A DNA stretch of 48,857 nt. It comes from a virus. The notes below the pieces were generated by a model. It worked only from the letters and a program-made list of their open reading frames with translations, was not told the DNA's origin and searched no databases. The stretch lies in UHGV virus genome UHGV-0138835, one strand, 5' to 3'. Each line of letters begins with the position of its first letter. Position 1 is the first letter of the stretch. Below are positions 5,801-48,656 of the stretch, piece after piece. The position numbers and the translations under genes are program-made.

Positions 5801-6150
5801 TGAACGGATACACCTACACGCTCAGGGAAAACGGGATGCCTTATGCTGGCGTTATTGCACAGGAAGTAATGGAGGCGATACCAGAAGCTGTGGGATCGTT
5901 TACTCATTACAGTGAAGAGTTGCAGGGACCAACGGTTGACGGCAACGAGCTACGCGAAGAAACGCGTTATCTCAATGTTGACTACGCCGCAGTAACTGGC
6001 TTACTTGTCCAGGTTGCACGCGAAACGGATAACCGCGTCACCGAACTGGAAGAGGAAAATGCCAGCTTACGCGCTAACATTGCTGTAATGGATGAGCGTA
6101 TCGCAAAACTTGAAGCGCTTGTCAGTAAGTTGACCGGAAGCGAAGAATAA
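2833..6150 (+). CDS. tail fiber protein with C-terminal intramolecular chaperone (peptidase S74-like) auto-processing domain
   Basis: 1105 aa; the C-terminal ~130 aa (DLKDDILVISDATKAIRKMNGYTYTL...YLNVDYAAVTGLLVQV...EEENASLRANIAVMDERIAKLEALV) matches the recalled endosialidase/T5 L-shaped-fiber chaperone domain; SD GGAG 8 nt upstream. Confidence 0.8.
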   Translation: MIYTTGTIAINGNAVTGTGTNFSAPLSLIRVGCTLIAIGNPVQIFTITEIKSGTELSVTPAANPAIPAGTKFSILLSDSISVDGLAQDVAETLRYYQGKETEIAAAVEWWEDFGGEGQLDQLLTNIRAETAKSTANAQKTETDKNAAEASKTAAAKSATAAKTSETNAKASETAAKTSETNAKTSENRAQEYLNQMGRLTSPMVQCDWPVTTGTTDAYVKIAKVTNPGSSSCHMTLMITNAGNYGTSYGNIDFVEISARGFPDELNADNVSKYLSIRRLGSPNLATDNQMRYGLVKGDNFFEVWCRQRAFTGSAKVAVLAQTNQNTELYIPEGFVKQDNAPSGFIESPAARIYDQVNKPSKADLGLSNAMLIGAFGLGGTGIGLTGYMTDQELLQELRAKGGCFWRSGKPTGSTATIYSHGSGIFSRCADTWSAINIDYSTAKVKVYAGNDNGLNNNTFAVNELYGTKNKPSKSDVGLGNVTNDAQVKKIGDVMSGDLAIKKGTPSFFLRSDSGTAHVWFQNADQTERGVIFAPTNSETLGEVHIRAKNAKGETNGDLIVRHDGVVEVQNLTAAKKAKSVTAEFANTSTSSDDTTVNIKGSQHTPLVLTRNNTIKNLSIGFKVDDVDQKYLGIAGDGDLYFGSYSDHTKNSKVITQAILDSGVTVGGKTTFSDLATFSAGIYGAIEPEIINSKTVDLNNLVIKSSDKGSVKYYQCTSSGAGNSITNKPDGVGGNFLLRVESIRKVTDSDYTNLQTLVGTDTKQIYVRYCENGNWSAWSQVVVSGRNQDVNVRSLTTGTPVKSGGGQIDVLGSTSDYSAMNCTVRGVDSTGTNSAWSVGTSESTGKMLYLKNHRSSAQVLLNGDDGAVQLLSGTVNSATAQALTINKDEVNSTADLVIRKQTGTGSRFALQNAGNAELPFSVSVWGSSTRQNVFEVATSAAYLFYAQRTPAGQLFDVNGAINCTTLNQSSDRDLKDDILVISDATKAIRKMNGYTYTLRENGMPYAGVIAQEVMEAIPEAVGSFTHYSEELQGPTVDGNELREETRYLNVDYAAVTGLLVQVARETDNRVTELEEENASLRANIAVMDERIAKLEALVSKLTGSEE

Positions 6151-6179
6151 TGGGTGATGTGCGAAGAACATCGCCGCGC

Positions 6180-6208
6180 GAAACGAGGCTAACGCCTCGT
6201 TTCTTTTT
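6180..6208 (+). terminator. rho-independent terminator after tail-fiber gene
   Basis: gaaacgaggc-taac-gcctcgtttc hairpin followed by TTTTT. Confidence 0.65.
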
Positions 6209-6229
6209 GTGTACCAAATAGTGACCAAA
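6208..6229 (+). repeat. 22-bp perfect direct repeat, copy 1 (tgtgtaccaaatagtgaccaaa); candidate integrase arm-type site / attP-region repeat
   Basis: Exact 22-mer recurs at 6439-6460, flanking a ~210-bp AT-rich tract just upstream of int. Confidence 0.5.
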
Positions 6230-6438
6230 ATGATAAATCAAAAACAAAAACATAACATAACACATTGAATACAAATGAATTTTTCATTAAGTTATCCATT
6301 CAAAAGATAAGTAGGTAGCGCCATTTCTATCATTTCATATCGTGTCACATCGTCACCGTTTCACGTTGATTTCAAAAGAAATATTTATTCTATCGTGTCA
6401 TATCGCTCCCCATCGTGTTACTATCCATGCGTAAAATG

Positions 6439-6460
6439 TGTGTACCAAATAGTGACCAAA
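6439..6460 (+). repeat. 22-bp perfect direct repeat, copy 2; ends 2 nt before the int start codon
   Basis: Identical to 6208-6229. Confidence 0.5.
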
Positions 6461-6462
6461 TT

Positions 6463-7662
6463 ATGCTTACAGATACCAAATTACGAAACATTCACGGCAA
6501 GCCATACGACGGCCCGGAAGAAGTACCGGACGCTGGCGGATTGTCTGCCAGGATAAGCCCGCGAGGAGTTATATCTTTCCAGTATCGCTACCGATTCAAC
6601 GGCAAGCCTCGACGGATGAAGATCGGCACATACGGAGAAATAACACTCAAAGAAGCGCGCGCGGAGGTGGCGGCGCACAAAGAAGTATTAAACTCAGGTC
6701 GAGATCCATCGGTAGCAAAAAGAATGCACCTTTCTCGCGTTACGACACGGGCAACGGTTGAGGATATTGTCAGGGAGTACATGGAATCAACGCAGGCAAG
6801 GAGCATGGTCAACTATAAGCAGGTTGAAGCGATGTTGAATAAGCACGTCATCAGGCCATACGGTAGCTATATAGTCGATGATATGGACGCTATGATGTGG
6901 GAGGGAGTTTTTAGAAAGGTAGCTAATGGTGGTGCGCCAGTTCAGGCGGGAATAGTTCTCAACAGAATGAAAGCGGTAATAAAATACGCCATGCGCCGCC
7001 GCCGCGTGGATCGTGACGACATATCGTTACTACGCGTGAAAGACGTTGGTAAAAACCCAGCGCAAGGGAAGCGGGTTTTGTCAATACAAGAGATTCGCCA
7101 TCTAATCAGCCTTATAGACAGTTCAAAAATGGCGCGTCTAAATCAGATATTGATGAAACTGATTATATTCACCGGATGCAGGACAAGCGAGCTAACAAAC
7201 GCAAGGCGAGAACATTTCGATCTTGATAACTGCGTGTGGACTGTGCCTGGTGCATTGAGTAAGAACAGAAACGAGTTTAAACGCGGTTTATCCGACGTTA
7301 GCGTCGATTTATTGCGTGAGGCTATGGATCTGCATAGCTTTGATTTTGTCTTCGTTCCTGTGCTTTCTGGAAGGGATGAGGCGGTGGACAGAAGCGTACC
7401 GAAAACAGCGGCAAGGGATTTAATGATGAGGATGGGCGGCGAGCCGTGGTCGTGTCACGATCTACGCCGCACCGTGAGGACAAACCTTTCAGCGCTTGGC
7501 GTTGCGCCTCACGTCGCTGAAAAGGTTTTGGGGCATAAGCTGGCGGGGATGTTGGCTATATACGATCAGTATGACTATGTGAGGGAACAAATAGAGGCGA
7601 TGAATAAACTGGCTGATTATTACATGAAGCCCATTGATTTACAAAATGAAATAACGTCCTGA
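6463..7662 (+). CDS. int: tyrosine recombinase / phage integrase (P4-type)
   Basis: N-terminal arm-binding-like region (ARISPRGVISFQYRYRFNGKPRRMKIGTYGEITLKEARAE) and C-terminal catalytic region with HDLRRT...LGH; start taken at ATG 6463 (the track ORF begins at 6415). Confidence 0.85.
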   Translation: MLTDTKLRNIHGKPYDGPEEVPDAGGLSARISPRGVISFQYRYRFNGKPRRMKIGTYGEITLKEARAEVAAHKEVLNSGRDPSVAKRMHLSRVTTRATVEDIVREYMESTQARSMVNYKQVEAMLNKHVIRPYGSYIVDDMDAMMWEGVFRKVANGGAPVQAGIVLNRMKAVIKYAMRRRRVDRDDISLLRVKDVGKNPAQGKRVLSIQEIRHLISLIDSSKMARLNQILMKLIIFTGCRTSELTNARREHFDLDNCVWTVPGALSKNRNEFKRGLSDVSVDLLREAMDLHSFDFVFVPVLSGRDEAVDRSVPKTAARDLMMRMGGEPWSCHDLRRTVRTNLSALGVAPHVAEKVLGHKLAGMLAIYDQYDYVREQIEAMNKLADYYMKPIDLQNEITS

Positions 7663-10861: not shown

Positions 10862-12277
10862 TTAAAAAGATGCGTTATTCTGATTGTTTCGTTGGCTAAA
10901 TCGGCTTGTACGATGATTCATGGACTGAATGCACGCGGCGGCGGCCTTACCCTGGTCGCATGGTAATATATTGCCGTTGTCATCAAACCGCTGGTAAATA
11001 GTACCAGTTTTCCCGTGACGGTTTTTAGATACAATTATTTCCATGTATTCGCGTGCTACAGACTGCTCATCGTAATAACCATCGCGGTAAACCATGATGA
11101 TCCTGTCAGCGTCTTGCTCAAGGTTCCCTGAATCTCGAAGATCTGAATTATTAGGGCGCTTGTTAGGTCGTTCCTCAACGCGGCGGGATAACTGGGCCAG
11201 CGCCAACACTGGTACACGCAATTCTTTCGCCATCATCTTCAACGACCATGACAATTGCCCTACAGCGAGATCGTGACGTTCGGCCTTAGCCAGCTTCATC
11301 AACCCGATGTAGTCAATCATTACCATACCCAGGTTGGGGTGTTCCTGTTTCATCCGTTCCGTGGTGGCGCGTATTTCCTCAACCGTTAACTGCGACGCGT
11401 CAACGATCCACACATCAAGATTAGCAAGTGCACTCATACCCTGGCCAACATGCGCCCACCCCTCATCATCAAGTTTTACCGGATTGCGCAGGCAGTCAGT
11501 TGATAAATTGCCAGCGCCAGCTATAGCGCGCTCAGTCATCTGATCGAGCGACATTTCAAGCGTGAATAACAAAACACCAACCCGCTGATCCTTGCTGCCA
11601 GGGTAAGGGCGCTCAGCAGCAGCGCGGGCAATCGCCAGCGCCAACGCAGATTTACCAGACCCAGGGCGTCCGGCGAGAAGTACCAAATCAGTGGCGTTAA
11701 TACCGCCTAACATTTCGTCGAGCGGTTCTATCCCTGTTTTGATGTTGTCAGAATTGACACCGCATTCCATGCGCTTGCTTAAAACCTCTGTGTATTCCTG
11801 TACCGCATCGCGCAACAGAACAGGGATAATCTTGTCTTTCGTTACCTTTAATTTTGAATACCGGGAATCAAAATCTTTCATCGTCTCTTTGACGACCTCA
11901 AGCGTACCCGTTTCCAGTTTGTAGCGCATATCGTCGATGAGTTCCAACATCTGACGCCGCTGGTGCTCTTCCCGTAGTAGCTGTGCGTACCCCTTCAGGT
12001 TGGCAGCAGAAGGACACGATCGCGCCGTTTGCATTAGCGGTACAAAGTTTTCGTTGCCAATCTCATCGCCAACCAATAACGCATCGATAAGATTCCTGTT
12101 TCTGGCTTGCGCCCTGATAATTTCAAACGCACGTTTATACAGCGGAATCGTGAACACTTCAGGATCAAGAGTGGCGAGAACATCTTGCGCGTTAGGAGTT
12201 AGGCCGCCTAACAGCAGCCCGCCGATAACTGACGCTTCACGTTCCTGCCGTAGTGAGTTTATTTGCTCAGTTACCAT
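10862..12277 (-). CDS. replicative DNA helicase, DnaB family
   Basis: N-terminal DnaB-like ERAVLGGLLL-type motif (EASVIGGLLLGG), Walker A GRPGSGKSA, length 471 aa. Confidence 0.85.
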   Translation of the reverse strand: MVTEQINSLRQEREASVIGGLLLGGLTPNAQDVLATLDPEVFTIPLYKRAFEIIRAQARNRNLIDALLVGDEIGNENFVPLMQTARSCPSAANLKGYAQLLREEHQRRQMLELIDDMRYKLETGTLEVVKETMKDFDSRYSKLKVTKDKIIPVLLRDAVQEYTEVLSKRMECGVNSDNIKTGIEPLDEMLGGINATDLVLLAGRPGSGKSALALAIARAAAERPYPGSKDQRVGVLLFTLEMSLDQMTERAIAGAGNLSTDCLRNPVKLDDEGWAHVGQGMSALANLDVWIVDASQLTVEEIRATTERMKQEHPNLGMVMIDYIGLMKLAKAERHDLAVGQLSWSLKMMAKELRVPVLALAQLSRRVEERPNKRPNNSDLRDSGNLEQDADRIIMVYRDGYYDEQSVAREYMEIIVSKNRHGKTGTIYQRFDDNGNILPCDQGKAAAACIQSMNHRTSRFSQRNNQNNASF

Positions 12278-12295
12278 TATGTTATTTCCTCCGGT

Positions 12296-13438
12296 TTACA
12301 AAATGGAATATTCAGGGTAATAAACAAAGCGCCCTATCTCACCATGATCCGGGCTGTAAATAATAACCGCCGCCAGGCGACGCGACCGCCATCCGCCATT
12401 AGTAGAATAAGCATCCTTACCGGCTAACGTGCCGTGATACTCAACAACGCCCAACGATGATTCAATCATCCGTTGATGATGCCAGTGCCCGCAGTGGGCG
12501 TAAACCGCCGCAGACTTCCCGAAATCATCGCGCCAGTCAGACACGCAAGCAGCCAATAAATTTTCCGGTTTTTTGATAGTGTGCCCGTGGTGGTAAGCAA
12601 GGAATGTTTTTCCGTACTGTGTGTGGTGGACGATGGCAGGGGACACATCAACCGTCACGCGCGGTTCATCTTCGTAAAAAGCCGCCAGCGACGCACGTAG
12701 CCATATCATTCCTGACTGGTCGTGATTGCCGGATAACACCTGTATTTCAACATCCTTATGATTTAATAACATCTTCCCTACCGCCCGCCGGACCGACCGG
12801 ATCGCTACATAAACAAGTTTTGCGTAGCGTGAATCGCAATCAAGTACGTGATTGCTTGATGGCGTAACTGGCAACAGACCGTCTGTGTGAAGAATATCCC
12901 CACCGAGAAGCAATACAGCTTTTTCAGACATCGGCGCAGCGCCTACAGCGTAGTCAAAGAAGTCATTCAACACGCGCTCAGCAATCCCAGTGTCGTAGCT
13001 CTCGCCGCATTCAGCTTTATGAGCAAGCGCCCCGATATGCAGATCAAATACCGGATAAAGGGCAAGGCTTTTTTGAAAATCAATTTCAGGCACTGGCACG
13101 GCCTCCGCGCGTGGTATTTCTTCCGTGAATGCGTCGCGGGCAGCTTCCATTACCTTTTCCATTTCATCGCGGTCACGGGCTGTTTTAATCCAGCGCATGA
13201 CTGTCTTCCCGTCTTTATCGACAAGAACAGATTCACCAGTAACGCCAAAACCCGGTGCGCGGCGCGTTGATAACAAACCGCGTTTCGCCAGCTTTGCGCC
13301 CAGACGCTCGACGTTGCGTTTTGACATGCAATATTTTTCAGCGATCTGTTTATACGTAAGACCGTTGTTATATTCAGCGATCAATTGCTCATCGCTGATT
13401 TTTCTTTGCGACATAATGTTAATTCCTCCAGTTAACAA
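12296..13438 (-). CDS. HTH domain fused to calcineurin-like metallophosphoesterase
   Basis: N-terminal HTH (LTYKQIAEKYCMSKRNVERL); phosphoesterase motifs DLH, GGDILHTDG, SGNHDQ, HHGH, GHWHH; start may be the internal ATG at 13414. Confidence 0.6.
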   Translation of the reverse strand: MLTGGINIMSQRKISDEQLIAEYNNGLTYKQIAEKYCMSKRNVERLGAKLAKRGLLSTRRAPGFGVTGESVLVDKDGKTVMRWIKTARDRDEMEKVMEAARDAFTEEIPRAEAVPVPEIDFQKSLALYPVFDLHIGALAHKAECGESYDTGIAERVLNDFFDYAVGAAPMSEKAVLLLGGDILHTDGLLPVTPSSNHVLDCDSRYAKLVYVAIRSVRRAVGKMLLNHKDVEIQVLSGNHDQSGMIWLRASLAAFYEDEPRVTVDVSPAIVHHTQYGKTFLAYHHGHTIKKPENLLAACVSDWRDDFGKSAAVYAHCGHWHHQRMIESSLGVVEYHGTLAGKDAYSTNGGWRSRRLAAVIIYSPDHGEIGRFVYYPEYSIL

Positions 13439-13447
13439 AATGTATAC

Positions 13448-14191
13448 CTACTTACACGCAAAAAGTTCAGATACCCAAAGCTGCCCCTTAGCGGTAAATA
13501 GTGATTGGACGTAACCTTCAGCCGAACATTTTACCACTCCATAGCCTTTTTCTACGAACCACTGTTTGAACATACGCCCACCGCGCTTAATTCGCGTATC
13601 GTACACGTCAACCTGTTCAAGTTTTTTGTTGAGTTGCGTAGCAGTCATACCCAAAGGCTTAGCGACCTGTGTAGCGTTGCGATGCTGTTCGTTTTTTGCA
13701 ATAGCATTATAAACAGCCGCTTTCGGTGCTAATTCCTTATTTTCCAGCGCCAGACGATCAACTTCTTTCTGTGCTAATAGTTTTTGCTCTACCTCATCCG
13801 CCCATGCGCGAGCAGCCGCAACCGGATCAGTGAAGTCCGGCAAAGCTGGTTTAAAACCGTAATGTCCATTTTCACGCAAAGCAGGGAGAACTTCTTCACA
13901 CACCCAATCCTGGAAGCGCTCAGCAAATTCTATTTTTGATCGCATCACAAGGCGGTACATATCTGATTCATGAATTAGCGTTACGCCTTGCGGTTTAGGG
14001 TCAAAACCCAAACACTGCATTTCACCGTATTTGATTTTAATCAATGACTTACAATGTTGTTTTAGAGCGTCCGCAGGTCTGATATACCCCAAAGCCCGCG
14101 CCACATCCATTGCAACAAAAGCAGGTTTACCATCATAAATTACAGCAGTGATTTTATTGTCATCAAAATTAAAACACATCAACTCAGACAT
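13448..14191 (-). CDS. antirepressor, Bro-N / KilA-C domain protein
   Basis: N-terminal Bro-N signature (FNFDDNKITAVIYDGKPAFVAMDVARALGY); start taken at ATG 14191 with GGGGAA SD. Confidence 0.7.
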   Translation of the reverse strand: MSELMCFNFDDNKITAVIYDGKPAFVAMDVARALGYIRPADALKQHCKSLIKIKYGEMQCLGFDPKPQGVTLIHESDMYRLVMRSKIEFAERFQDWVCEEVLPALRENGHYGFKPALPDFTDPVAAARAWADEVEQKLLAQKEVDRLALENKELAPKAAVYNAIAKNEQHRNATQVAKPLGMTATQLNKKLEQVDVYDTRIKRGGRMFKQWFVEKGYGVVKCSAEGYVQSLFTAKGQLWVSELFACK

Positions 14192-14323
14192 TGTAATTTC
14201 CCCGCAAAACGCTCTACAACGCAAAAATCCCACCGCGTAACACGTTCGCACATGTTGCAGTGTATTATTGCGCCAGAGGCGCTATCAGGTGGCTAATTTT
14301 TGATTTACAGACCGGTAGGTAGG

Positions 14324-15869: not shown

Positions 15870-16174
15870 CTTGTTTTTCTCCTATGGTTAGAGTGAACGC
15901 GCGGGCGGGCATCCCATTAGCATTAGATAGCAGTGACTGACCGCTCAACAGATCCCGCCGTTGCGTGATATTTGTTTTTCGCTTCGCAGCGACACCGGAT
16001 TTTTAAAGAGCTTAAGGAATTGGCCTTTTGTGCTTTCCTTTATCTTTTTTCTTGCATCATTGCAACTATGGCCTTACCTTGTCTGCAAGTTTACATAATG
16101 GCTTTAACAGGTCAAGGCTTGAAAAACACGTTTTGTGACTTGCATCAAACTTTTTTAGGTTATAGGGTAGCGAC
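15870..16174. promoter_or_regulatory. divergent immunity regulatory region (OR-like) with repeated CTTGCATCA motifs and a candidate leftward boxA/boxB
   Basis: CTTGCATCA at 16051 and 16139; TTTACATAATGG at 16090; minus-strand boxA-like GCTCTTTAAAAA (plus 16000-16011) followed by a hairpin at plus 15979-15992. Confidence 0.45.
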
Positions 16175-16822
16175 ATGAAAACAAAATGGTATGACTTAGC
16201 AAAGCAGCTCATGCGGGCGCAGGGCATGAGTCAGGATTCATTGGCTGATCTCATGGGGATAACCAAAGGTGGCCTTTCGCACTGGCTGAACGGTCGCCGT
16301 GAGCCAAATCTTGAAGATATTGCGCGGATCATGCGGGCGCTTGGGCGTCGGCAGTTTACTGTCACACATGACGGGATGGTTATCGATGATTCTGTTTCTA
16401 ACACGTTACCGGGAGCGCCACCGCGTGATTTAGGCAGTTACCCGGTTGTTGACTGGAAGGATGTAGCAAACAATATGGAAGGCACATGCCGATCAACATT
16501 GCCACACATTACTACTAGCGTTATTTGTTCGGATGATAGTTATTGGCTGGTTGCTAAAGGTGAATCAATGAACGCACCGCAGGGGTTAAGCATCCCGGCG
16601 GGGACTATGATACTCGTTGACCCGCACGCGCCAGCTATTGACGGAAAACTTGTTATAGCACAACTGGAGGAAGGGCAGATACCTACGTTTAAACAGTTGA
16701 TTATTGATGGAGGCCGAAAACTTTTGCGTTCACTGAATCCGTTGTATCCGCCGATCCCTATGAATCCAGAGTCAAAAATCATTGGCGTGGTTGTTGATGC
16801 GAAGATCGTAAACCTGCCATAA
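16175..16822 (+). CDS. CI-type repressor (HTH_XRE + LexA-like S24 peptidase domain), P22 C2-like
   Basis: C-terminal domain closely matches recalled P22 C2 (GSYP…SEDS.WL…G.SM.AP.GLSIP.G..ILVDP……GKLV.A.LE…..TFK.L..D.GRK.L..LNP.YP.I…….KIIGVVVDAK..NLP). Confidence 0.9.
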   Translation: MKTKWYDLAKQLMRAQGMSQDSLADLMGITKGGLSHWLNGRREPNLEDIARIMRALGRRQFTVTHDGMVIDDSVSNTLPGAPPRDLGSYPVVDWKDVANNMEGTCRSTLPHITTSVICSDDSYWLVAKGESMNAPQGLSIPAGTMILVDPHAPAIDGKLVIAQLEEGQIPTFKQLIIDGGRKLLRSLNPLYPPIPMNPESKIIGVVVDAKIVNLP

Positions 16823-16827
16823 ACATT

Positions 16828-16853
16828 AGCCGCCTGGTGGCGGCTTTTCTTTG
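16828..16853 (+). terminator. rho-independent terminator after repressor gene
   Basis: agccgcc-tggt-ggcggct hairpin followed by TTTCTTTGTT. Confidence 0.6.
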
Positions 16854-16946
16854 TTCGAAAAAACACCAAAACGTAAACAGAAAACGCTATTTATTGTTTA
16901 AATATCAATAGTATATAAAATATTTTAAAAAAGTATACAAAATGGA

Positions 16947-16975
16947 TTGACTCGATGTTATACGGGGAGTATATT
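16947..16975 (+). promoter_or_regulatory. candidate sigma70 early promoter (pL-like): -35 TTGACT, 17-bp spacer, -10 TATATT
   Basis: Hexamers and spacer read directly; upstream of the nut site and the N-like gene. Confidence 0.5.
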
Positions 16976-17110: not shown

Positions 17111-17401
17111 ATGAGCGTTACAATTATGTATGGAAAATGTGATAGCAAAATGAACGCCAGGGAACGCAGAAGGATAAAAAGAGAAAACGAAAGAAAATCA
17201 TCACCTGCAATTAATAAAACAGACAATGTGGATAAAGCTATTCGATTTGCAAACGAGGAAAGGTGCAAACCAAATAGCATTAAAGAACGTCGCAAAGGAT
17301 CAGTAAAATGGTATACGGAAAATGAAAGCGGCAGCTACTACCACGCAACGCAACCACGCCATTTAGGGGAGAAACCCCTGGATAAAGTCCGTTACCATTA
17401 A
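17111..17401 (+). CDS. N-like transcription antitermination protein (P22 gene 24-like)
   Basis: N-terminus MSVTIMYGKCDSKMNARERRRIKRENERK resembles recalled P22 gp24 (MTVITYGKS…AKTRRHERRRKLA) with an arginine-rich motif; first gene after promoter and nut. Confidence 0.6.
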   Translation: MSVTIMYGKCDSKMNARERRRIKRENERKSSPAINKTDNVDKAIRFANEERCKPNSIKERRKGSVKWYTENESGSYYHATQPRHLGEKPLDKVRYH

Positions 17402-17550
17402 TACAAAATGTAAACATTCGGAGGTTACATTATGGTTATCGAGGCGCTTCAATTCAAACTGACAGTAGCGGAAATGCTTCATGATGCCGAAATGTGGAGC
17501 GCCGCGAATAAAGCCTTATACATAGTGTTAACAGCGAAGGAGATTAAAGA

Positions 17551-18192
17551 GTGAAAACAGAGTTACACAAAAAACTGTGGACGATTCAGCAAACGCTGAA
17601 CGCGCCGAAAAATCAGCGTAATAATTTCGGCGGATACAATTACAGGTCGGCGGAGGATATTTTAGAAGCGGTCAAACCACTGCTTCAAAGTATTACGCTG
17701 ACTGTAAGCGATGAAATTGTCCTGATCGGCAATCGCTATTATGTGAAAGCCACTGCGACACTAAGCGACGGTGAGGATGAAATAGCGGTAACTGCTTACG
17801 CCAGGGAGGAAGAAAGCAAGAAGGGAATGGACGCAAGCCAGTTAACTGGCGCGACATCAAGTTACGCGCGTAAATACGCGTTGAACGGATTGTTCTGTAT
17901 TGACGATGCGCGTGATCCTGATACTGATGCATACGCCAAGCAGACAGGCCAGCAGCCTCGCCAACAGAAAAACCCACCAAAACAACAACCACAGCAGCAG
18001 AAGGCGCCGCCAAATCCTGACGAAGTGTTAGCGCGTTTCTGTGATGCAGCAGCGAAAGCGCCGGACGCTAACAAGTTACGCGAGATCTTCGGCAAGTGCT
18101 GGAAGCTATTGCCTAAGGATTCAGAACAACAACAGAAAGCGAAAGACGTTTATGACATTCGCTTGAAAGAGCTTAACGGGGAGATCGGTTAA
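17551..18192 (+). CDS. erf: Erf single-strand annealing recombinase
   Basis: Strong match to recalled P22 Erf (…LNAPKNQ.N.FG.Y.YRS.EDILE.VKPLL……SDEIVLIG.RYYVKATAT..DGE………AREEE.KKGMDA.Q.TGATSSYARKY.LNGLF.IDDA.D.DT); GTG start with AAGGAG SD. Confidence 0.9.
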   Translation: MKTELHKKLWTIQQTLNAPKNQRNNFGGYNYRSAEDILEAVKPLLQSITLTVSDEIVLIGNRYYVKATATLSDGEDEIAVTAYAREEESKKGMDASQLTGATSSYARKYALNGLFCIDDARDPDTDAYAKQTGQQPRQQKNPPKQQPQQQKAPPNPDEVLARFCDAAAKAPDANKLREIFGKCWKLLPKDSEQQQKAKDVYDIRLKELNGEIG

Positions 18193-20784: not shown

Positions 20785-20883
20785 CGTTGTGGTTGCGATC
20801 GCATAAATATACGTTTTGTGTTGCGATCGCAAATCCGTTTTGTGAACTGAAATCAAAAGGTTTACGGCGCGGAGGAAAACAAG

Positions 20884-23103: not shown

Positions 23104-23587
23104 CAGGTTACTGGCCTGCGTTTATGTCGCCGTTTTCGTAATCATCAACCTAATTGTTAACCATTGCGGCCCGTGGGTAATTCCGATCACCACGGTAGCC
23201 GCTGTGTGTGTCAATATGATGATCCGTGACTTCCTGTTATATGACGGCGGCCTGAAATGGTCGGCTACAACATGCGCCGCCGCTGGCGCAATCACGGTGC
23301 TGATAAATTACGATGCTGGAATGGTGGCGATTGCGTCATTCGTTGCGGTTGTTTCCGGTGCGCTTATTTCTGGCGGCGTTTACCGGGTTTTACCTGGTGA
23401 TTTCGATTCGAAACGATGGCCTGCAAATATAGCTTCAGCCATCGGTGATGCGTTGATTTTCCCTACGCTATCGTTCATGGCATTTATGCCTGAAATATCA
23501 GCTATGCAGTTCATCTCAAAAATGGCAGCGGTAACGGTGATCACTATCATCATGCGCCGCTATTTCACGTTTGAGGGAAGAAAATGA
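23084..23587 (+). CDS. integral membrane protein (~167 aa, multiple TM helices); very tentatively VUT/YhhQ-like
   Basis: Strongly hydrophobic; weak resemblance to recalled YhhQ segment (AS..G[DN]…F…F.AF); start at ATG 23084. Confidence 0.4.
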   Translation: MKKVTIDRLLACVYVAVFVIINLIVNHCGPWVIPITTVAAVCVNMMIRDFLLYDGGLKWSATTCAAAGAITVLINYDAGMVAIASFVAVVSGALISGGVYRVLPGDFDSKRWPANIASAIGDALIFPTLSFMAFMPEISAMQFISKMAAVTVITIIMRRYFTFEGRK

Positions 23588-24111
23588 ATTGGGAAGATTA
23601 TTTTATATACAATCCAGACACGGGTAAATTGTACTGGAAATGTAGAAATGATATAGATGAATCAAGGCGTAAACAATGGAATGCGTGCAACGCTGGTCAT
23701 GAAGTTGGATATATTGGCGGTAGCGGTGGTTATCTTAACACAGCGCTTACCGTAGGCGGGAAGCGTTATAATTTAAAAGTTCACAGAATATGTTATGAGA
23801 TGTACTATGGCCCAATACCTGAAGGTAAGGAGGTTGATCATATAAATCACATTAAAACAGACAATCGAGCCGTCAATCTTGAATTAAAAGACCATAAAGA
23901 TAATATGCGCAATATGTCTTTGATGGTAAACAATACCAGTGGATGCGCTGGTATCCATAAAAATAAACATGGTAAATGGGTTGTTAGAATAGGCGGAGGC
24001 AAAAGAGGCGAGAGGGTTTATATAGGGTGTTTTTCTGATATTAATGACGCAATAAAAGCACGACGCGACGCTGAAAAAGAGTATGGCTATCATGAAAACC
24101 ACGGCAAATAG
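23584..24111 (+). CDS. HNH homing endonuclease with AP2-like DNA-binding domain
   Basis: HNH core HRICYEMYYGPIPEGKEVDHINHIKTDNRAVNLE and AP2-like GIHKNKHGKWVVRIGG…YIGCFSDINDAIKARRDAE. Confidence 0.8.
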   Translation: MNWEDYFIYNPDTGKLYWKCRNDIDESRRKQWNACNAGHEVGYIGGSGGYLNTALTVGGKRYNLKVHRICYEMYYGPIPEGKEVDHINHIKTDNRAVNLELKDHKDNMRNMSLMVNNTSGCAGIHKNKHGKWVVRIGGGKRGERVYIGCFSDINDAIKARRDAEKEYGYHENHGK

Positions 24112-24370
24112 AACAACCCGCCAGCCGCCGCGCGGCTTTGCCAGTGCTGTATTCCTTGCTAACGACCGGGCCATCACGCGTACTACGCTCAACCGCGTTT
24201 TACCGGACTAAAGTTTACAAAATGGCGTCATTGCGTGATGTGGATCACATAATGGCGATTTTCACCTTGTTCTGACGTATCCATTTTGTATACTTCAAAC
24301 AAGAAAAATGCTCTTTAAAAATCCGGTAGCGCTGAAATGCGTAGAAATCACCTGAAAAGGAGAGAGCATT

Positions 24371-32789: not shown

Positions 32790-32858
32790 ATGGTTACTTT
32801 CCTGTTAGGTTTATTTATCGGAATGGCTGCCGCTGTAATATTACTGGTCGGTGAATAA
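32790..32858 (+). CDS. micro-ORF 1 (22 aa) hydrophobic single-helix peptide MVTFLLGLFIGMAAAVILLVGE
   Basis: SD GGGGGTGA 5 nt upstream; read by hand; below ORF-track cutoff. Confidence 0.45.
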   Translation: MVTFLLGLFIGMAAAVILLVGE

Positions 32859-32862
32859 TGTT

Positions 32863-32979
32863 ATGGACGATTATATCATCGCCGGATTAATCGGTATTTC
32901 TGTATTTCTTGTTGGTTCTATCATAGTTGCATTGATAAACGCATATATCAAGCATTGGGTGGGGTTGAAAGATGATTGA
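32863..32979 (+). CDS. micro-ORF 2 (38 aa) MDDYIIAGLIGISVFLVGSIIVALINAYIKHWVGLKDD
   Basis: SD GGTGA 9 nt upstream. Confidence 0.45.
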   Translation: MDDYIIAGLIGISVFLVGSIIVALINAYIKHWVGLKDD

Positions 32980-33046
32980 TCCGCTCATTATCCTTTCTGC
33001 CTGCGTCGCTGTATGGCTGGCGATCATGATATTCATTGAAAGCTGA
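32972..33046 (+). CDS. micro-ORF 3 (24 aa) MIDPLIILSACVAVWLAIMIFIES
   Basis: ATGATTGA overlap with micro-ORF 2; SD GGGTGGGG upstream. Confidence 0.4.
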   Translation: MIDPLIILSACVAVWLAIMIFIES

Positions 33047-33057
33047 AGGTATTCACC

Positions 33058-33132
33058 ATGAATATTTACGATCTAATATGGTGGTCAGTGGTCGCCGTCA
33101 TTATCTATTTCTGGTGGAAGAATGTTGTATAG
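33058..33132 (+). CDS. micro-ORF 4 (24 aa) MNIYDLIWWSVVAVIIYFWWKNVV
   Basis: SD GAAGGT 8 nt upstream. Confidence 0.45.
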   Translation: MNIYDLIWWSVVAVIIYFWWKNVV

Positions 33133-33139
33133 GTGAAGC

Positions 33140-33220
33140 ATGAACGCATACGAAATGCTATTGCTGGTGGCTGTAGTTGTAGTCATTGCTGTTGATTTTT
33201 ATAGAGGGTTTAAAAGATGA
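33140..33220 (+). CDS. micro-ORF 5 (26 aa) MNAYEMLLLVAVVVVIAVDFYRGFKR
   Basis: SD AGGTGA 4 nt upstream. Confidence 0.45.
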   Translation: MNAYEMLLLVAVVVVIAVDFYRGFKR

Positions 33221-33288
33221 GAGAAGCAGACTTCTTTTGCATAATTATAGTGATCGTCATCGTTGCGGTGCTTTTAAGCGTTAACTGA
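33217..33288 (+). CDS. micro-ORF 6 (23 aa) MREADFFCIIIVIVIVAVLLSVN
   Basis: ATGA overlap with micro-ORF 5; SD GAGGG upstream. Confidence 0.4.
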   Translation: MREADFFCIIIVIVIVAVLLSVN

Positions 33289-33305
33289 ATCGCAGGGGGT
33301 TGAAA

Positions 33306-33374
33306 ATGAAATGGCTTGATTTCTTTTTCCTGGTTGTTGCGATTGTTTTTACCATGACCGCGCTGACTCAATAG
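33306..33374 (+). CDS. micro-ORF 7 (22 aa) MKWLDFFFLVVAIVFTMTALTQ
   Basis: SD AGGGGG 7 nt upstream. Confidence 0.45.
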   Translation: MKWLDFFFLVVAIVFTMTALTQ

Positions 33375-33382
33375 GTGAATAT

Positions 33383-33457
33383 ATGGAAACTATCGAAGCC
33401 GTATTATTCGTATGTATCGCGGCGGTTGTTATTGTGGGGTTTATTATCAATGTCTGA
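33383..33457 (+). CDS. micro-ORF 8 (24 aa) METIEAVLFVCIAAVVIVGFIINV
   Basis: SD AGGTGA 5 nt upstream. Confidence 0.45.
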   Translation: METIEAVLFVCIAAVVIVGFIINV

Positions 33458-33518
33458 CGGTGATTTCTTAATCATGGCTATATGCACGTTGTTAGTCGTT
33501 ATCGTTTTCTTCGCATAA
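33450..33518 (+). CDS. micro-ORF 9 (22 aa) MSDGDFLIMAICTLLVVIVFFA
   Basis: ATGTCTGA overlap with micro-ORF 8 (coupled). Confidence 0.35.
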   Translation: MSDGDFLIMAICTLLVVIVFFA

Positions 33519-33527
33519 AGGTAAACA

Positions 33528-33611
33528 ATGAAAGAATTATTCGACTGGTTGGAAGTATTAACATACTGCGCAAGTTTTGTTGCTTGCGTATACATCATCA
33601 ATAAATATTGA
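33528..33611 (+). CDS. micro-ORF 10 (27 aa) MKELFDWLEVLTYCASFVACVYIINKY
   Basis: SD AAGG 7 nt upstream; stop 10 nt before the terminase small subunit start. Confidence 0.45.
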   Translation: MKELFDWLEVLTYCASFVACVYIINKY

Positions 33612-33621
33612 GAGGTGAAAT

Positions 33622-41738: not shown

Positions 41739-42179
41739 ATGCCTATTAAGGGTGTTAAACGCGTCAGGGAGCGATTGAAGCAGGAACTAAAGGAAATTAC
41801 AGACAGAAAAACTCACGATGTATTATGGCGCGTAGGGATGCTGGCTGGTGGCTTCGCGGCGAACATGACCCCAGTTGATACGGGTTTTTTAATTAACAGC
41901 CAATTTCAGTATATAGGTAACACGGCGGAGGGTATGCAATTACGGCTTGGATATACGGCCCGTTACGCCGAATGGGTGCATGACATGCCGGGTAAATTAA
42001 AAGGTCAGCCGCGCGAACATTTCGGCAAAACCAGAGAAGGGGTTGAATTTGGCGGCGGTACTGGTAAGGGTGATTACTGGGATCCAAACGCGGAACCTGA
42101 ATTTTTGCGCAAGGCATTCGAAGATCCAAACAACGCCGACGATATTTATAAAGAGATTGTGGAAGGTTACAAAACATGA
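41739..42179 (+). CDS. tail completion / head-tail joining protein (by position)
   Basis: 146 aa, SD AAAGGGG. Confidence 0.4.
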   Translation: MPIKGVKRVRERLKQELKEITDRKTHDVLWRVGMLAGGFAANMTPVDTGFLINSQFQYIGNTAEGMQLRLGYTARYAEWVHDMPGKLKGQPREHFGKTREGVEFGGGTGKGDYWDPNAEPEFLRKAFEDPNNADDIYKEIVEGYKT

Positions 42180-44260: not shown

Positions 44261-44339
44261 TTTCTTATCCTCTTTTGCTTCCTCCGGTCAATCCGGTCTT
44301 TTAAATCCCTTTGCTCTATCCCTTTCCTTTATCTTCTTT

Positions 44340-44406
44340 ATACAAAATGTACTCGTTGAAGTGAAGCCATTTTGTATAAAATAGAGACATAGATCACATT
44401 TTGTAT
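44340..44406. promoter_or_regulatory. inverted/direct repeats of ATACAAAATG / CATTTTGTAT in the divergent region upstream of the tape-measure gene
   Basis: ATACAAAATG 44340-44349; CATTTTGTAT at 44368-44377 and 44397-44406. Confidence 0.45.
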
Positions 44407-44417
44407 GAGGTTAAATC

Positions 44418-47400
44418 ATGTCAACAAATTTGGGTACAATTTACTACGAGGTTGACGCGAAAACGGGTCAGCTTCTGACTGTTCAACGCGATGTAGATCG
44501 CGCAACTGGCAAAATGGAAAAGGATTTGGAGCGCGTGGATAGTGCCGCTACTCAGGCAAGTAAGTCACTGTCAAAACTATCCTCGATTGCCAGCGCCCTG
44601 GGTGCTGCAATGGCAGCGAAAAAAATCATTGAGTATGCAAACGCCTGGCAGGAGGTGAATAACAGGCTAATCAATAGCGTTCGTGCTGGTGAATCGCTGG
44701 CAGACGTTAATCAGCGTGTATTTCAGATCGCGCAAAATTCACGAAGCGACCTTGATGCTACGGCAGATCTTTACGGTAAATTAGAGCGCTCGACGCGCGA
44801 CGCTGGTTTATCGACGAAAGCACTTGGTGATATGGTTGAAACCATTAACAAAACATTCCGCATTTCTGGCGCTTCTGCCGCTGAAGCAGAAGGCGGGATC
44901 CGTCAGTTGGGTCAATCCCTCGCCAAAGGTGTTTTGAATGGCGATGAATTTAACTCCGTTACAGAAAACGCCACCAGGCTGTCAGAGGGTTTAGCTAAAT
45001 CACTGGGCGTATCGTCGGCAGAAATGCGCAAGATGGCAGCAGAAGGGAAAATCACCCGTGAAGCTATCATTAAAGCCCTTAAGGAAATGAAAGCGGAAGT
45101 TGATGCTGAGTTTTCTAAACTCACCCCAACTATGCAGGAGGCTTTCACTGTTGCAGGCAACAACGCAGCTAAATTTTTCGGCAGCAATTCGTCAATTATG
45201 GGCGGGATTGGTGCTTTTAATTCGGCAGTTGTAACCCTGTCAGAAAACCTTAACGAAATAGCTACCGCATTTATTGGCCTTGCCACTGTGATGGGTGGCA
45301 GAGTGGTAAATAAATTCGTAGCTGCAACAGCAGAGGCATTAACTAACGCTCAGGCAACCAGGGCACAAACGGCAGCGGCACGGCAGGCCGCTCAGAGTGA
45401 ATTGGCGCTAGCTAACGCTCAGGTGGTATCAGCACGGCAATCAGTAGCGGCGGCGGCGGCAAGGCTGAGAGAGGCGCAGGCTTATGCTGCGGCAAATGCC
45501 GGAACAAAATTCGAAGTTCAGACGCTGAAAGAGTTGGCTGTAGCCAAAGCACAGAACACAGCGGCATCAAACGCCCTTACTGCGGCAGAGCAGCGCCTTG
45601 CTGCGGCCCACACTGCGGCGGCGGCTAATGCAGGGCTACTAAAAACAGCATTTAGCGCTACTCTGGGCGCGATCGGCGGTATCCCTGGCGCGTTAATGCT
45701 TGCTGTTTACGGGTTGACAGCATATGTAGATCACGTAGATCAAACAGCAGAGGCAAACCGCAACCTTGCTGATTCAGTGGATGTTAGTACCGAATCACTG
45801 GAGCGAATGAGCAAGGCGGCTAAACTGGCTGGCGCAGATAAACTACAAATATCAATGGGTCAGTTAGAGGAAGACATTGACAGTCTTAACAAACAGATTG
45901 ACCAGGACACGCAGGCGCTGGAACTGAATAAGCGGGCACTGGAGAACGCCGAGGAGGGATCACGCGCTTACGCCAACCTATCGAAAGCTAATCAGGAAAT
46001 CACAGCCCGCCTGACCAGGGAAGAAGCACAGCGTGAAGATATTCTCGACCGCCTTAATCAAATGCAGCGCAAATATATTTTGCTTATGCAGGATACAGAT
46101 CCGCTAATGAAGACCCTTGCCACTTCATTGGGGTTGGTGGCGGATGCATACGGAAGAATCACCACAGAAGCAGAACGCGCAGCAGCAGCAACGCAACACG
46201 CTTCAGCAGCGCTTAACGCAGATCAACAAGAACTAATAGATCTGGCAAACCGCCGCCTGGAACTGGCAAAACTCGACTCCAAAACAGCCAGCAGGGAAAA
46301 GGCGATTGATGGGTTTAAGCGTGAGGCTGAGAAAGCAAACCTGACCGGGGAAGCGTATGAAAAATACATGGCTACAATGACCAAAGCATACGACACCGAG
46401 CAGAAACGCGCCGAAGCTGAAAGAAAGGCCAATCAAGGGAAGAAAACTGGCGAAAGCGAGGAAAAAAAACGTCTAAAAGAGGCTGAACGCCTACGCAAAG
46501 AGCTTGAGAAACGGGGACAGAATGTTGCAGACAAATACAACGTCGAAGCAGCCGCGCAACGTAAACTAAAAGAGGATCAGAAAGCACTAAACGCAGCATT
46601 AGAAAGCGGCAAAATAAGCGCGGAACAATATAATAAGGCATGGAAGGAATTAATTGGAACCGAGGAGCAACGCAAGCGCCAGGCTGGCTGGGATAATCTG
46701 GTAAACAATGAGCTGCAACTACGCGGGCAGCTAGACCCAATTCAGCAGGCGATGAACGAATGGGCGGTTCGCAAACAAATGCTCACAGATTTAGGCGCTA
46801 CAGAGCAATATATGAGGGAGCAAGAAAAAGCGCACGAGAGGGAAATGCTATCACTTCAGTGGGAGAGGTATAAGGCGCAGTCATTGACCAACCAACTGTT
46901 AGGTGATGCCGTTGATGCAATGAGCGGATCTGCAACTAACGCGCTTGTCGGCCTGATTAACGGTACTCAGAGCTGGCAACAGGCGCTTGCTAACATTGGC
47001 AATACGATTCTGTCATCCGTGATCGGTACGCTTGTTCAGATGGGCGCTGAATGGGTCAAGCAGCAATTAATAGGGGAGGCTGCCAGTGCCGCCGCAACAG
47101 CAAAGGCAATGGGCGAGGCGGTGGCGTTAAGTTCTGCATGGTCCACCCCGGCCTACCTAGCAAGCGTGGCAACAATGGGCGGCGCAGCGACGGCGGGATC
47201 AACAGCGATGGCCACCGGACTTGCTGGAGCAAAAGCGCTTGCTCTGGGTGGCGCTCGTTATAACGGCGGTGCGGTTAATGGTGGTAGCCTGTATCGCGTA
47301 GGGGAACACGGGATACCGGAGCTATTCCAGACGAGCAACGGGCGTCAGTATATGATTCCTGGTGAAAATGGCAGGGTCATTCCTGGCCGCGATCTTTTCA

Positions 47401-47704: not shown

Positions 47705-47959
47705 TCACTTATGCGCCCCTTTTACCCCGCAGTGTCTGTTATATTCCAGATGGTCGATAATTAACCACGCCTTTAAATCTTCGCTGAATAACCGCCAATC
47801 GGGGTTGATGTCAAATTTATAACCGTAGCCATCGCGTAATTTTTTGGGGTTGGCCTCTTTTTTCAGGAAAGCATTTAATAAAGCCTTGCCCTTTTTGATG
47901 ATCCGGTCCTGTGCGTTTTTTTGTGCTTTCAGATTTTTACCAATCGCTACCAATTTCAT
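47705..47959 (-). CDS. hypothetical basic protein (84 aa), moron; second gene of a minus-strand pair
   Basis: ORF antisense to the tail operon; SD GGGGTGAG upstream. Confidence 0.45.
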   Translation of the reverse strand: MKLVAIGKNLKAQKNAQDRIIKKGKALLNAFLKKEANPKKLRDGYGYKFDINPDWRLFSEDLKAWLIIDHLEYNRHCGVKGAHK

Positions 47960-48133: not shown

Positions 48134-48239
48134 GTTGGCCTCCTTTGTCGGTACTGCTTTTTCTTCTTGCTTACTATATACATCTTGTTACGTCCTGTGT
48201 GAAGCCATTTCGTAAACTGGGTATAATTCTTGTGATGAA

Positions 48240-48275
48240 TTTCTCATTTTTCGCGTAGAAGCGCGTAAAGATGTA
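48240..48275 (+). promoter_or_regulatory. conserved element with tandem CGCGTA, copy 2, in the M-gene 5' leader (with TATAAT at 48222-48227 upstream)
   Basis: tttctcatttttcgcgtagaagcgcgtaaagatgta; about 32 of 35 positions shared with 35616-35650. Confidence 0.4.
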
Positions 48276-48302: not shown

Positions 48303-48656
48303 ATGCCGGAAGTTTTCAGATGGACGCCGCAAAGAAGCTACAGCGTGACCAGGGAACCAAATGTGTCGGTCGTTAAACTTGGTGATGGTTATGAACAGCG
48401 CCAGGCGAAAGGGATTAACACGTTGCTTGATAAATACACCCTGGTTTTTAAAGGCAGTAGCGCAGGATGCGGTGATGGTAGAAACGTGGCGATCCAGGCA
48501 GAAGCATTCTTGAGGGCGCGCGGCGCTGTCGAGGCTTTTTACTGGTCGCCGTCTATGGATGGCGTGCAAAGGCTTTTTGTTTGCCGTAGCTGGAGTATGA
48601 CAAAGGACGGGCCTGTATACACGCTAAACGCAACGTTTGAGCAAGTTGTTGGCTAA
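48303..48656 (+). CDS. M: minor tail protein M (lambda gpM family)
   Basis: Match to recalled lambda M (FRW…GDGY.QR…FEQVV), 117 aa, follows the tape measure. Confidence 0.8.
   Translation: MPEVFRWTPQRSYSVTREPNVSVVKLGDGYEQRQAKGINTLLDKYTLVFKGSSAGCGDGRNVAIQAEAFLRARGAVEAFYWSPSMDGVQRLFVCRSWSMTKDGPVYTLNATFEQVVG

Follow-up and report, generated by a model that had tools for sequence, protein, structure and literature searches.

The 48,857-nucleotide viral sequence UHGV-0138835, referred to here as the window, carries many copies of a short motif, ACAAAATGG, which flank the gene of a lambda-CI-type repressor, Rep, and recur at a number of distant loci. It is very probable, judging from sequence comparisons, that ACAAAATGG is the centre of the operator recognised by Rep. 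The motif is assigned to Rep on the basis of two reciprocal tests with position weight matrices (PWMs) and of the dyads that follow Rep homologues into other genomes. Physical binding, cooperativity, promoters, and the direction of regulation are inferred from the enrichment of the motif, the anatomy of the sites, their conservation, and their co-occurrence with the Rep family.

The window belongs to the mEpimmI group of phages and is mEp021-like. Its immunity region is 90-98% identical to those of the six sequenced mEpimmI phages (mEp021, mEp010, mEp013, mEp044, mEp515, and mEp554). The mEpimmI phages are a family of Nus-dependent, non-lambdoid coliphages that was described in 2025, and in human faeces they are as common as lambdoid phages (PMC11893012). 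In this family, Rep021 confers immunity and resembles lambda CI, and three nut sites have been defined for the N-like protein Gp17 (PMC11893012). The operator was left undefined, and Rep was only said to be a protein that "may" recognise different operators (PMC11893012). A full-text literature search for the motif sequence together with repressor and operator, the scope of which leaves out the 2023 Gp17/nut paper, returned nothing relevant. Within the literature searched, and as far as it is searchable, the Rep operator is previously undescribed.

Frequency and anatomy of the motif

The exact 9-mer occurs ten times on the two strands of the window; 100 dinucleotide-preserving shuffles gave 0.80 copies on average and never more than 4. 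The excess of this 9-mer, the starting point of the original prediction, is therefore real, and every coordinate listed there holds the sequence assigned to it. Under an order-3 Markov background, ACAAAATGG is the top-ranked 9-mer of the window (10 observed against 0.73 expected, p=6e-9), and ACAAAATG is the top 8-mer (17 against 3.0). The degenerate form ACAWAATGK is found 20 times compared with 2.5 in shuffles, and 15 of these 20 copies are non-coding or straddle a gene edge (binomial P=2e-11). Since only 10.5% of the window is non-coding, the coding and intergenic frequencies of the motif, a comparison proposed at the outset as a check on it, are clearly dissimilar.

The 9-mer was originally taken to be the recognition site itself. 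It does lie within such a site, but it forms only the centre of a longer pseudo-dyad of 15-17 bp and not the whole of it. When 17 window sites are aligned, the information is concentrated in the 13-mer G-T-W-T-ACAAAATG-K, which is weakly mirrored on its right side. The full site is a 15-17 bp pseudo-dyad that reads GTWTAC-AAAAT-GKAWAC in this lineage and WATAC-RWWWY-GTATW in the wider Rep family. The consensus of the foreign Rep-family operators is nWATAC-RWWWY-GTATWn. The best window sites are 17-bp pseudo-dyads (GTATACAAAATGGATAC / GTATCCATTTTGTATAC at 24277-24293, and GTTAACAAAATGTATAC at 13431-13447), and many others have one good half only. A second half-site placed at a distance was ruled out, as the information within ±25 bp is confined to the block of 13-17 bp.

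About 27 candidate sites are distributed over 10 loci of the window (Table 1). Eight of these loci, at 2.7, 12.3, 13.4, 17.4, 20.8, 24.2, 44.3, and 48.2 kb, lie beyond the immunity region. The sites that were absent from the original list are the pairs 12270/12294, 13407/13431, 17399/17423, and 20807/20831, a fourth junction cluster at 48176/48201/48273, the site at 2716, and a copy at 16181-16189 in codons 3-5 of rep. The sequence CGTTTTGTG at 16129-16137, which had been entered as a variant, is a true member of the family, because several relatives have a perfect ACAAAATGT at the same position (L015, L106, L111, and L114 for the corresponding operator, O2). Seven site pairs are spaced 24-25 bp centre to centre, which is the spacing of cooperatively bound lambda operators; the C-terminal domain of Rep is a homologue of the one in lambda CI. 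Both orientations of the site are found within one operon, as shown by 12270 (-) with 12294 (+) and by 24213 (+) with 24277 (-).

The GATCAC that had been seen in front of several copies is confirmed at three sites, 2781, 24243, and 44392. At these sites (2781-2786, 24243-24248, and 44392-44397), a Dam site overlaps the operator arm. Dam-type methyltransferases are encoded by relatives (mEp021 gp30; PF05869 in the distant mEp-like phage L128), and methylation might modulate repressor binding. Viral contigs scanned with AAGTWTACAAAATGG gave mostly single chance matches. Several matches per contig were found only in mEp-like contigs, and these contigs are the source of the footprint comparisons described below.

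Association of the motif with Rep homologues

Rep matches the lambda repressor (PDB 3bdn, E=1.6e-18) over residues 15-208, with the helix-turn-helix (HTH) domain included, and close Rep homologues carry PF01381 and PF00717. Rep is 96% identical to mEp021 Rep, and the N-terminal domains of the two proteins are identical. The original proposal, in which a dimeric DNA-binding protein, possibly the CI-type repressor, recognises the motif, was tested by following Rep homologues with the recognition helix GITKGGLSHWLNGRRE or near variants into other genomes. It gains strong support from this test, in that the motif tracks the Rep homologues across unrelated prophage backgrounds, where its 15-17 bp dyads are confined to the gap between cro and rep and to the PL-type promoter.

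The same dyad flanks Rep homologues in six other contexts, namely a distant mEp-like phage and prophages of Enterobacter, Citrobacter, Serratia, Tatumella, and Shewanella. In the distant mEp-like phage (L128), Rep is 56% identical and has the same recognition helix; ACAAAATGG is again the top 9-mer (8 against 0.41), and the sites flank rep. An Enterobacter contig (L131), which begins ~200 bp upstream of rep and has only bacterial genes downstream, carries TATAC-N5-GTAT dyads immediately upstream and downstream of rep. The lambdoid-type prophages of Citrobacter, Serratia, and Tatumella (L132, L135, and L136) have three dyads between cro and rep and a further two, with a spacing of 25 bp, over a PL-type promoter; in Tatumella the latter two lie upstream of N. 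The Shewanella homologue (L137) has the helix TPGGMGHW in place of TKGGLSHW, and the layout is the same, with half-sites TGTAC. Its dyads (2912-2990 and 5868-5910) read TGTAC-N5-GTACA and not TATAC-N5-GTATA. This joint shift of helix and half-site, seen in a single lineage, may be a change in the specificity code. A control prophage (L138), whose repressor shares the C-terminal domain and has an N-terminal domain of the P22-C2 type, is without the dyad and has P22-type ATTTAAG...CTTAAAT operators instead.

Two reciprocal PWM tests guard against circularity. With a PWM made from window sites only, all five matches in L131 adjoin rep. In L132, L135, L136, and L137, the matches of this PWM are concentrated between cro and rep and at the PL-type promoter, the latter being downstream of rep and, in two prophages, upstream of N; in the control L138 there are 0 matches. 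In the opposite direction, a PWM made from 20 foreign operators only finds six window sites at >=14 bits compared with 0.28 in shuffles (maximum 1), and all six are in regulatory gaps.

It could be argued that the sites are bound mainly by another phage protein (a Cro analogue, an 84-aa winged-helix protein, or a late regulator) and that Rep recognises something else. In lambda, two unrelated proteins share the same operators, and the first gene of the PL operon in the window encodes the 84-aa protein, which belongs to HTH_36. No Cro-like protein was recognised among the genes of this phage; the Cro position is occupied by this HTH_36/DnaD_N-like protein, and in L128 and the lambdoid relatives by HTH_3 Cro-like genes. 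However, the window and mEp021, two homoimmune phages in which the motif is identical, share only 35% identity in the 84-aa protein, which resembles DnaD_N/HTH_36 and co-varies with the replication module. This protein is thus not supported as the binder. The only neighbour common to the motif in all seven contexts is the Rep homologue, and in L131 rep is the only gene called beside the sites. Recognition mainly by a protein other than Rep is therefore improbable.

A host protein site (IHF, Fis, CRP, DnaA, TyrR, or similar) recruited at phage promoters is exceedingly unlikely. The core is A/T-rich, and we take it to bear a partial resemblance to the half-site consensus sequences of Fis and TyrR; presumably none of the host-factor consensus sequences considered (IHF, Fis, CRP, DnaA, TyrR, and OmpR) fits it well. 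The motif, however, tracks the type of repressor and not the host. It is found beside Rep homologues from Escherichia to Shewanella and takes the half-site TGTAC alongside a different recognition helix; the enterobacterial control prophage with the P22-type repressor does not have it.

Putative operators in the immunity region

In the lambdoid relatives, the sites are arranged as an O1/O2/O3 set at PR and PRM, with an A/B pair at PL. In Tatumella and Serratia, the spacer and -10 of PR are occupied by O1. The centre of O2 lies ~42 bp before the rep ATG, and O3 covers a -10 positioned for a leaderless rep mRNA. The window repeats these geometries at PL/PRM and at PR.

The predicted PL in which O1 is placed has a -35 TTGACC (16115-16110), a 16-bp spacer, and a -10 TAAACT (16093-16088), and it leads into nutL. 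The core of O1 is ACAAAATGG, ACAGAATGG, or ACATAATGG in relatives, and its flanks are conserved. O2 abuts the -35 of the predicted PRM (TTGCAT 16140-45, 17-bp spacer, TAGGGT 16163-68), from which transcription would begin at the A of the rep ATG, and the geometry of O2 is that seen in the Tatumella and Serratia prophages. The rep gene is without a Shine-Dalgarno sequence, and 6 nt separate the end of the -10-like TAGGGT from the rep ATG; in the Tatumella homologue, TATTAT is found in this register (L136 2978-3003). These features suggest that the rep mRNA is probably leaderless, as is that of lambda cI from PRM. Candidate O3 is invariant in 7 phages. It is coding, its right arm misfits the dyad, and its external PWM score is 0.1. 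It could be a site of negative autoregulation or a coding coincidence of Met-Lys-Thr-Lys-Trp.

On the other side of rep, a weak case can be made from sequence for the candidate distal operator, which lies in a block invariant in all 7 phages. On either strand, the stem-loop that follows rep (16828-16852) has the score of an intrinsic terminator, and it could insulate rep from antisense transcription from the PR side. The predicted PR consists of TTGACT (16947-52), a 17-bp spacer, and TATATT (16970-75), scores 10/12 in one promoter scan and 15.0 in another, and feeds nutR1 and the N-like gene. The strong operator at its -35 reaches 16.1 bits with the external PWM and is invariant in 7 phages. 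The candidate weak operator is the positional homologue of the consensus operator in PL of L131, L135, and L136. Its left arm in relatives is TATAC, TTTAC, or ATCAC only, all of which are variants found elsewhere in the family. Its G-rich centre (2.1 bits) suggests that the site is weak and needs cooperative help. A palindrome around PR, TTGACTCG...CGAGTCAA, was dropped as it is not conserved in relatives. Between PR and nutR1 (window ~17003), a segment of ~216 bp that carries the small gp16 ORF is present in mEp021, mEp515, and mEp010 and missing in the window, mEp554, mEp044, and mEp013.

The following mode of action is proposed for the immunity region. Rep dimers bound to O1 over the -10 and spacer would shut off PL. 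O2, located at ~-43 of a leaderless PRM-type promoter and thus placed like lambda OR2, may stimulate rep transcription. At PR, the strong site at the -35 edge and the weaker site over the spacer and -10, 25 bp apart, would be filled cooperatively.

Dispersed pairs over ribosome-binding regions

Outside the immunity region, four pairs of sites are spaced exactly 24 bp apart (Table 1). The pair at the helicase gene is also present in mEp021 (6042/6066) and L128 (6686/6710). The pair at the 372-aa gene, which lies directly downstream of the Bro-N/ANT gene, is also present in L034, L102, and L114. The site at 17399 has an external PWM score of 16.4, and the Kil-like Pfam match of the 40-aa gene that follows is weak (E=1.8e-4, under the curated cut-off). 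The sites at 20807 and 20831 score 16.3 and 9.4 with the external PWM, and their mEp021 equivalent is at 16542. The tandem duplication at this locus (20785-20850, ~24-28 bp) consists of two copies, each a palindrome TGCGATCGCA followed by an operator.

It is proposed that the 24-25 bp pairs on the ribosome-binding region and start codon of the helicase, 372-aa, and kil-like genes would act as roadblocks. In the lysogen, such sites may silence secondary promoters or block read-through into replication, toxic, and late genes.

At each of these three genes, one copy lies on either side of the Shine-Dalgarno sequence, with the AUG inside the second copy, an arrangement that would also suit inverted copies forming RNA hairpins that hide the Shine-Dalgarno sequence or start codon, for translational control or as an attenuator. 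The predicted hairpins are weak, however (-4.6 to -6.1 kcal/mol), and no better than those of shuffles (z = +0.95, -0.31, and +0.43). In L128 the helicase pair is a direct repeat, which cannot pair, and the PL and PR sites are upstream of the predicted transcription starts. Moreover, near-palindromic operators are inevitably complementary to each other. Because of the shuffle-level stability and the direct repeat in L128, hairpins were rejected, and we regard them as a hardly credible explanation of the motif.

Clusters at the junctions of late genes and moron islands

The late genes run rightward, and minus-strand moron islands interrupt them. Clusters of 3-4 sites are found in the window wherever plus-strand transcription resumes, and in every cluster the spacer of the best predicted promoter is taken up, next to its -10, by one of the sites. 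In mEp021 the motif is present at all four moron/late junctions, and the distant phage L128 keeps the dispersed layout.

The 82-aa moron beside cluster A is at the position of Lpp in mEp021. In this cluster, the site at 2781 abuts an extended -10, TGGTAGAAT (2791-2799), and the site at 2810 overlaps the Shine-Dalgarno sequence; the cluster is conserved in mEp021 at 52947/52981/53010. In cluster C, two predicted promoters diverge, toward the minus-strand moron and toward the tape-measure gene, and the sites at 44338 and 44363 lie in their spacers. In cluster D, the sites at 48176 and 48201 are just upstream of a perfect TATAAT (48222-27), and the site at 48273 precedes the minor-tail gene (48303-48656). 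The equivalent of cluster D in mEp021 is at 42049.

Cluster B is associated with a nut site. Its third site occupies the spacer of a predicted promoter (TTGTTC 24267-72, 16-bp spacer, TATACT 24289-94) and directly adjoins the -10, which ends 15 bp before the boxA of nutR2, TGCTCTTTAAAAA (24309-21). The boxA regions of nutL and nutR2 are nearly identical (GCTCTTTAAAAATCCGGT). In 8 relatives, substitutions in cluster B fall between the sites, and the site cores are invariant. This footprint, like the 66-bp operator block that mEp013 keeps at cluster C, supports a function of the sites. The PL-like register of the predicted promoter and the distance of 15 bp from the -10 to boxA suggest a third Rep-controlled early promoter. 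It follows from this arrangement that nutR2 may have its own repressor-controlled promoter and not depend on read-through from PR.

A generic sigma-70 element or extended -10 was rejected as an explanation of the motif. The orientation to the -10 differs (2781 as against 24277), the PR site is upstream of the -35, and a generic promoter element is unable to yield ten identical 9-mers, though many sites abut -10-like hexamers.

The clusters are also where homology between mEpimmI phages breaks off. At cluster C, only a 66-bp operator block (44333-44398) is shared between mEp013 and the window, with unrelated flanks; at cluster A, the homology with mEp021 and mEp515 starts from 2749, in the site at 2747. 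The positions of free-standing HNH endonuclease genes differ between phages (23584-24111 in the window; 6080-6583 and 45958-46524 in mEp021). At least two of these genes adjoin operator sites, the HNH gene of the window being located before cluster B and mEp021 gp10 beside the pair in the helicase ribosome-binding region. The breakpoints, the adjoining HNH genes, and the -10-like hexamers next to many sites would all be in keeping with module-boundary or promoter cassettes that are spread by recombination or mobile HNH genes and are not protein-binding sites. This explanation is very improbable, since it does not account for the same dyad at Rep homologues in unrelated prophages or for the canonical tripartite operators there. 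It also leaves unexplained the 24-25 bp pairing and the invariant 9-bp core amid differing -35, -10, and Shine-Dalgarno contexts. The shared Rep operators may nevertheless act as recombination joints for module exchange, and such a cassette role may be secondary to, and compatible with, their role as operators.

Strength of the operator assignment

Several observations weigh against the assignment of all these sites to Rep or against the functions proposed for them. All promoters discussed here are consensus predictions, with predicted starts near 16081 (PL), 16175 (leaderless rep), 16982 (PR), 24301 (before nutR2), 2806, 44388, 44330 (minus strand), and 48234, and binding is inferred. Many sites have a poor second half and a low foreign-PWM score (0.6 for 24213 and -3.8 for 2781), and the mEp lineage conserves the centre over the arms, whereas the foreign prophages do the reverse. 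The strong site at PR has its centre at ~-41, which in lambda PRM is an activating position, and the site over the -10 has a G-rich centre that none of the training operators shows. The copy within rep may reflect nothing more than the coding of Lys-Thr-Lys-Trp, and the third site of cluster C (44392-408) is not conserved. Finally, an operator-sharing Cro would be expected and none is recognised here, so that a second binder is possible.

With these points taken into account, the identity of ACAAAATGG as the centre of the Rep operator is still very probable. For the clusters, the proposed action would be repression of predicted sigma-70 promoters before the nutR2/ninG, tape-measure, minor-tail, and tail-fibre genes. 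That most of the sites beyond the immunity region are functional repressing or roadblock sites appears fairly probable. The broadest proposal is that a CI-family repressor runs a genome-wide network of the P1/L5 kind. Such a network would consist of ~27 operators at ~10 loci, including three early promoters, late-block promoters, and roadblock pairs, and its clusters would also serve as module-exchange joints. Taken as a whole, this proposal is tentative, and we are inclined to doubt it.

Table 1. Candidate Rep operators and associated features of the window.
Feature	Position	Strand	Sequence	Context
rep	16175-16822	+		lambda-CI-type repressor with HTH_3 N-terminal domain and S24 peptidase C-terminal domain; proposed binder of the motif
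Leftward replication operon	starts 15869	-
Rightward operon	first gene at 17111	+		first gene is the N-like gene
O1	16089-16105	+	GTTTACATAATGGCTTT	over -10/spacer of predicted leftward PL
O2	16124-16140	-	AGTCACAAAACGTGTTT (minus strand)	35 bp from O1; centre ~-43 from rep ATG
Candidate O3	16177-16193	+	GAAAACAAAATGGTATG	inside rep codons 1-7
Candidate distal operator	16862-16878	-	GTTTACGTTTTGGTGTT (minus strand)	between rep terminator and PR; match to core regular expression
Strong operator	16933-16949	+	GTATACAAAATGGATTG	overlaps first 3 bp of PR -35
Candidate weak operator	16958-16974	+	TTATAC-GGGGA-GTATAT	over PR spacer and -10; 25 bp from strong site
Pair, 24 bp apart	12270-12310			brackets Shine-Dalgarno and covers ATG of DnaB-type helicase gene (10862-12277, -)
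Pair, 24 bp apart	13407-13447			over ribosome-binding region and ATG of 372-aa gene (12296-13414, -)
Pair, 24 bp apart	17399-17439			over ribosome-binding region and ATG of 40-aa Kil-like gene (17432-17554, +), after N-like gene
Pair, 24 bp apart	20807-20847			in tandem duplication, intergenic gap 20785-20883
Cluster A	2716-32, 2747-63, 2781-97, 2810-26			between minus-strand 82-aa moron and 1105-aa tail gene
Cluster B	24213-29, 24243-59, 24277-93			between HNH gene and ninF/ninG
Cluster C	44338-54, 44363-79 (25 bp apart), 44392-408			before tape-measure gene
Cluster D	48176-92, 48201-17 (25 bp apart), 48273-89			end of minus-strand moron island with ParE-like gene

Other features of the phage and its group

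Among 5,426 complete E. coli genomes, 35 contain the same immunity region as a prophage. Lysogens of mEpimmI phages are not UV-inducible, and Rep is without the Ala-Gly cleavage site (PMC11893012); for this reason, an antirepressor route to induction is worth considering. A gene of the Bro-N/ANT antirepressor type is located in the leftward early operon (13448-14251, -). The ParE-like toxin gene of the moron island at cluster D is at 47705-47959 (-).

Between the lysis region and the small terminase gene (32790-33620), ~8 very short ORFs are arranged in a row. They encode small hydrophobic peptides, and each has its own Shine-Dalgarno-like sequence. Another over-represented word of the window, CTTGATAA, ranks fourth among the 8-mers (15 against 2.7). 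Five of its copies are on one strand at 534-1182, within a 765-aa tail-fibre ORF (78-2375), and this clustering suggests a coding repeat and not a regulatory motif.

Significance and comparison with known systems

The analysis provides a concrete operator consensus for mEpimmI Rep and for the wider CI-like clade in Enterobacterales and Shewanella, together with a directly testable map of the sites. The results suggest control of many loci, and not of OL and OR alone, by a CI-type repressor, a dispersed layout that is already known from the unrelated P1 and mycobacteriophage systems. If a promoter is indeed present just upstream of nutR2, it would explain the need for three nut sites. The site map offers a possible account of how late genes that are interrupted by moron islands are silenced and a possible prediction of where virulent mutations map, and it could be of use for prophage annotation and for the engineering of mEpimmI phages.

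Judged by protein homology and by the shape, placement, and spacing of the sites, the system belongs to the lambda CI family. As in lambda CI with OR/OL (and also in 434 and in P22 C2), a homologous repressor with HTH and S24 domains is combined with 17-bp pseudo-dyads that have one strong and one weak half. Sets of operators are placed on both sides of the repressor gene over early promoters, which are predicted ones here, and the promoter of the repressor gene itself, which is probably leaderless, has one site at ~-42. The spacing of adjacent sites is ~24 bp, and N-type antitermination sites are located downstream of the controlled promoters. The differences from lambda include the recognition helix TKGGLSHW with the operator ATAC-N5-GTAT, the orientation of rep, which points the same way as the N-side operon, and a Cro that is not recognised. 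The main difference is the presence of ~20 extra sites at eight loci beyond the immunity region, among them pairs over ribosome-binding regions and clusters inside the late region, whereas the lambda sites are beside the repressor gene only. Confinement of the operators to OL and OR, a feature of the lambda-type switch, is thus not seen here.

In their dispersed layout, the sites resemble those of two other phages. P1 has 22 C1 operators with a 17-bp consensus dispersed over its genome (PMC8546580). Here as in P1, there would be one immunity repressor with ~20 dispersed operators at many separate operons (PMC8546580). In contrast, the C1 and CI proteins are unrelated, the C1 operator ATTGCTCTAATAAATTT is without any symmetry, and P1 is a plasmid prophage with a Coi/Lxc/C4 circuit. 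The stoperators of mycobacteriophage L5 and other mycobacteriophages of cluster A are many sites in short intergenic gaps, and they have been proposed to silence prophage genes beyond the early promoters (PMC9283540). The likeness to L5 lies in the many dispersed sites in short intergenic gaps, with ~27 candidates at 10 loci here. The L5 repressor, however, is a monomer with two DNA-binding domains that recognises an asymmetric 13-mer, and its sites work in one orientation to transcription only. In the mEpimmI window the sites are pseudo-dyads of a CI-type dimeric family, they occur in both orientations in one operon, and they are often arranged in 24-25 bp pairs.

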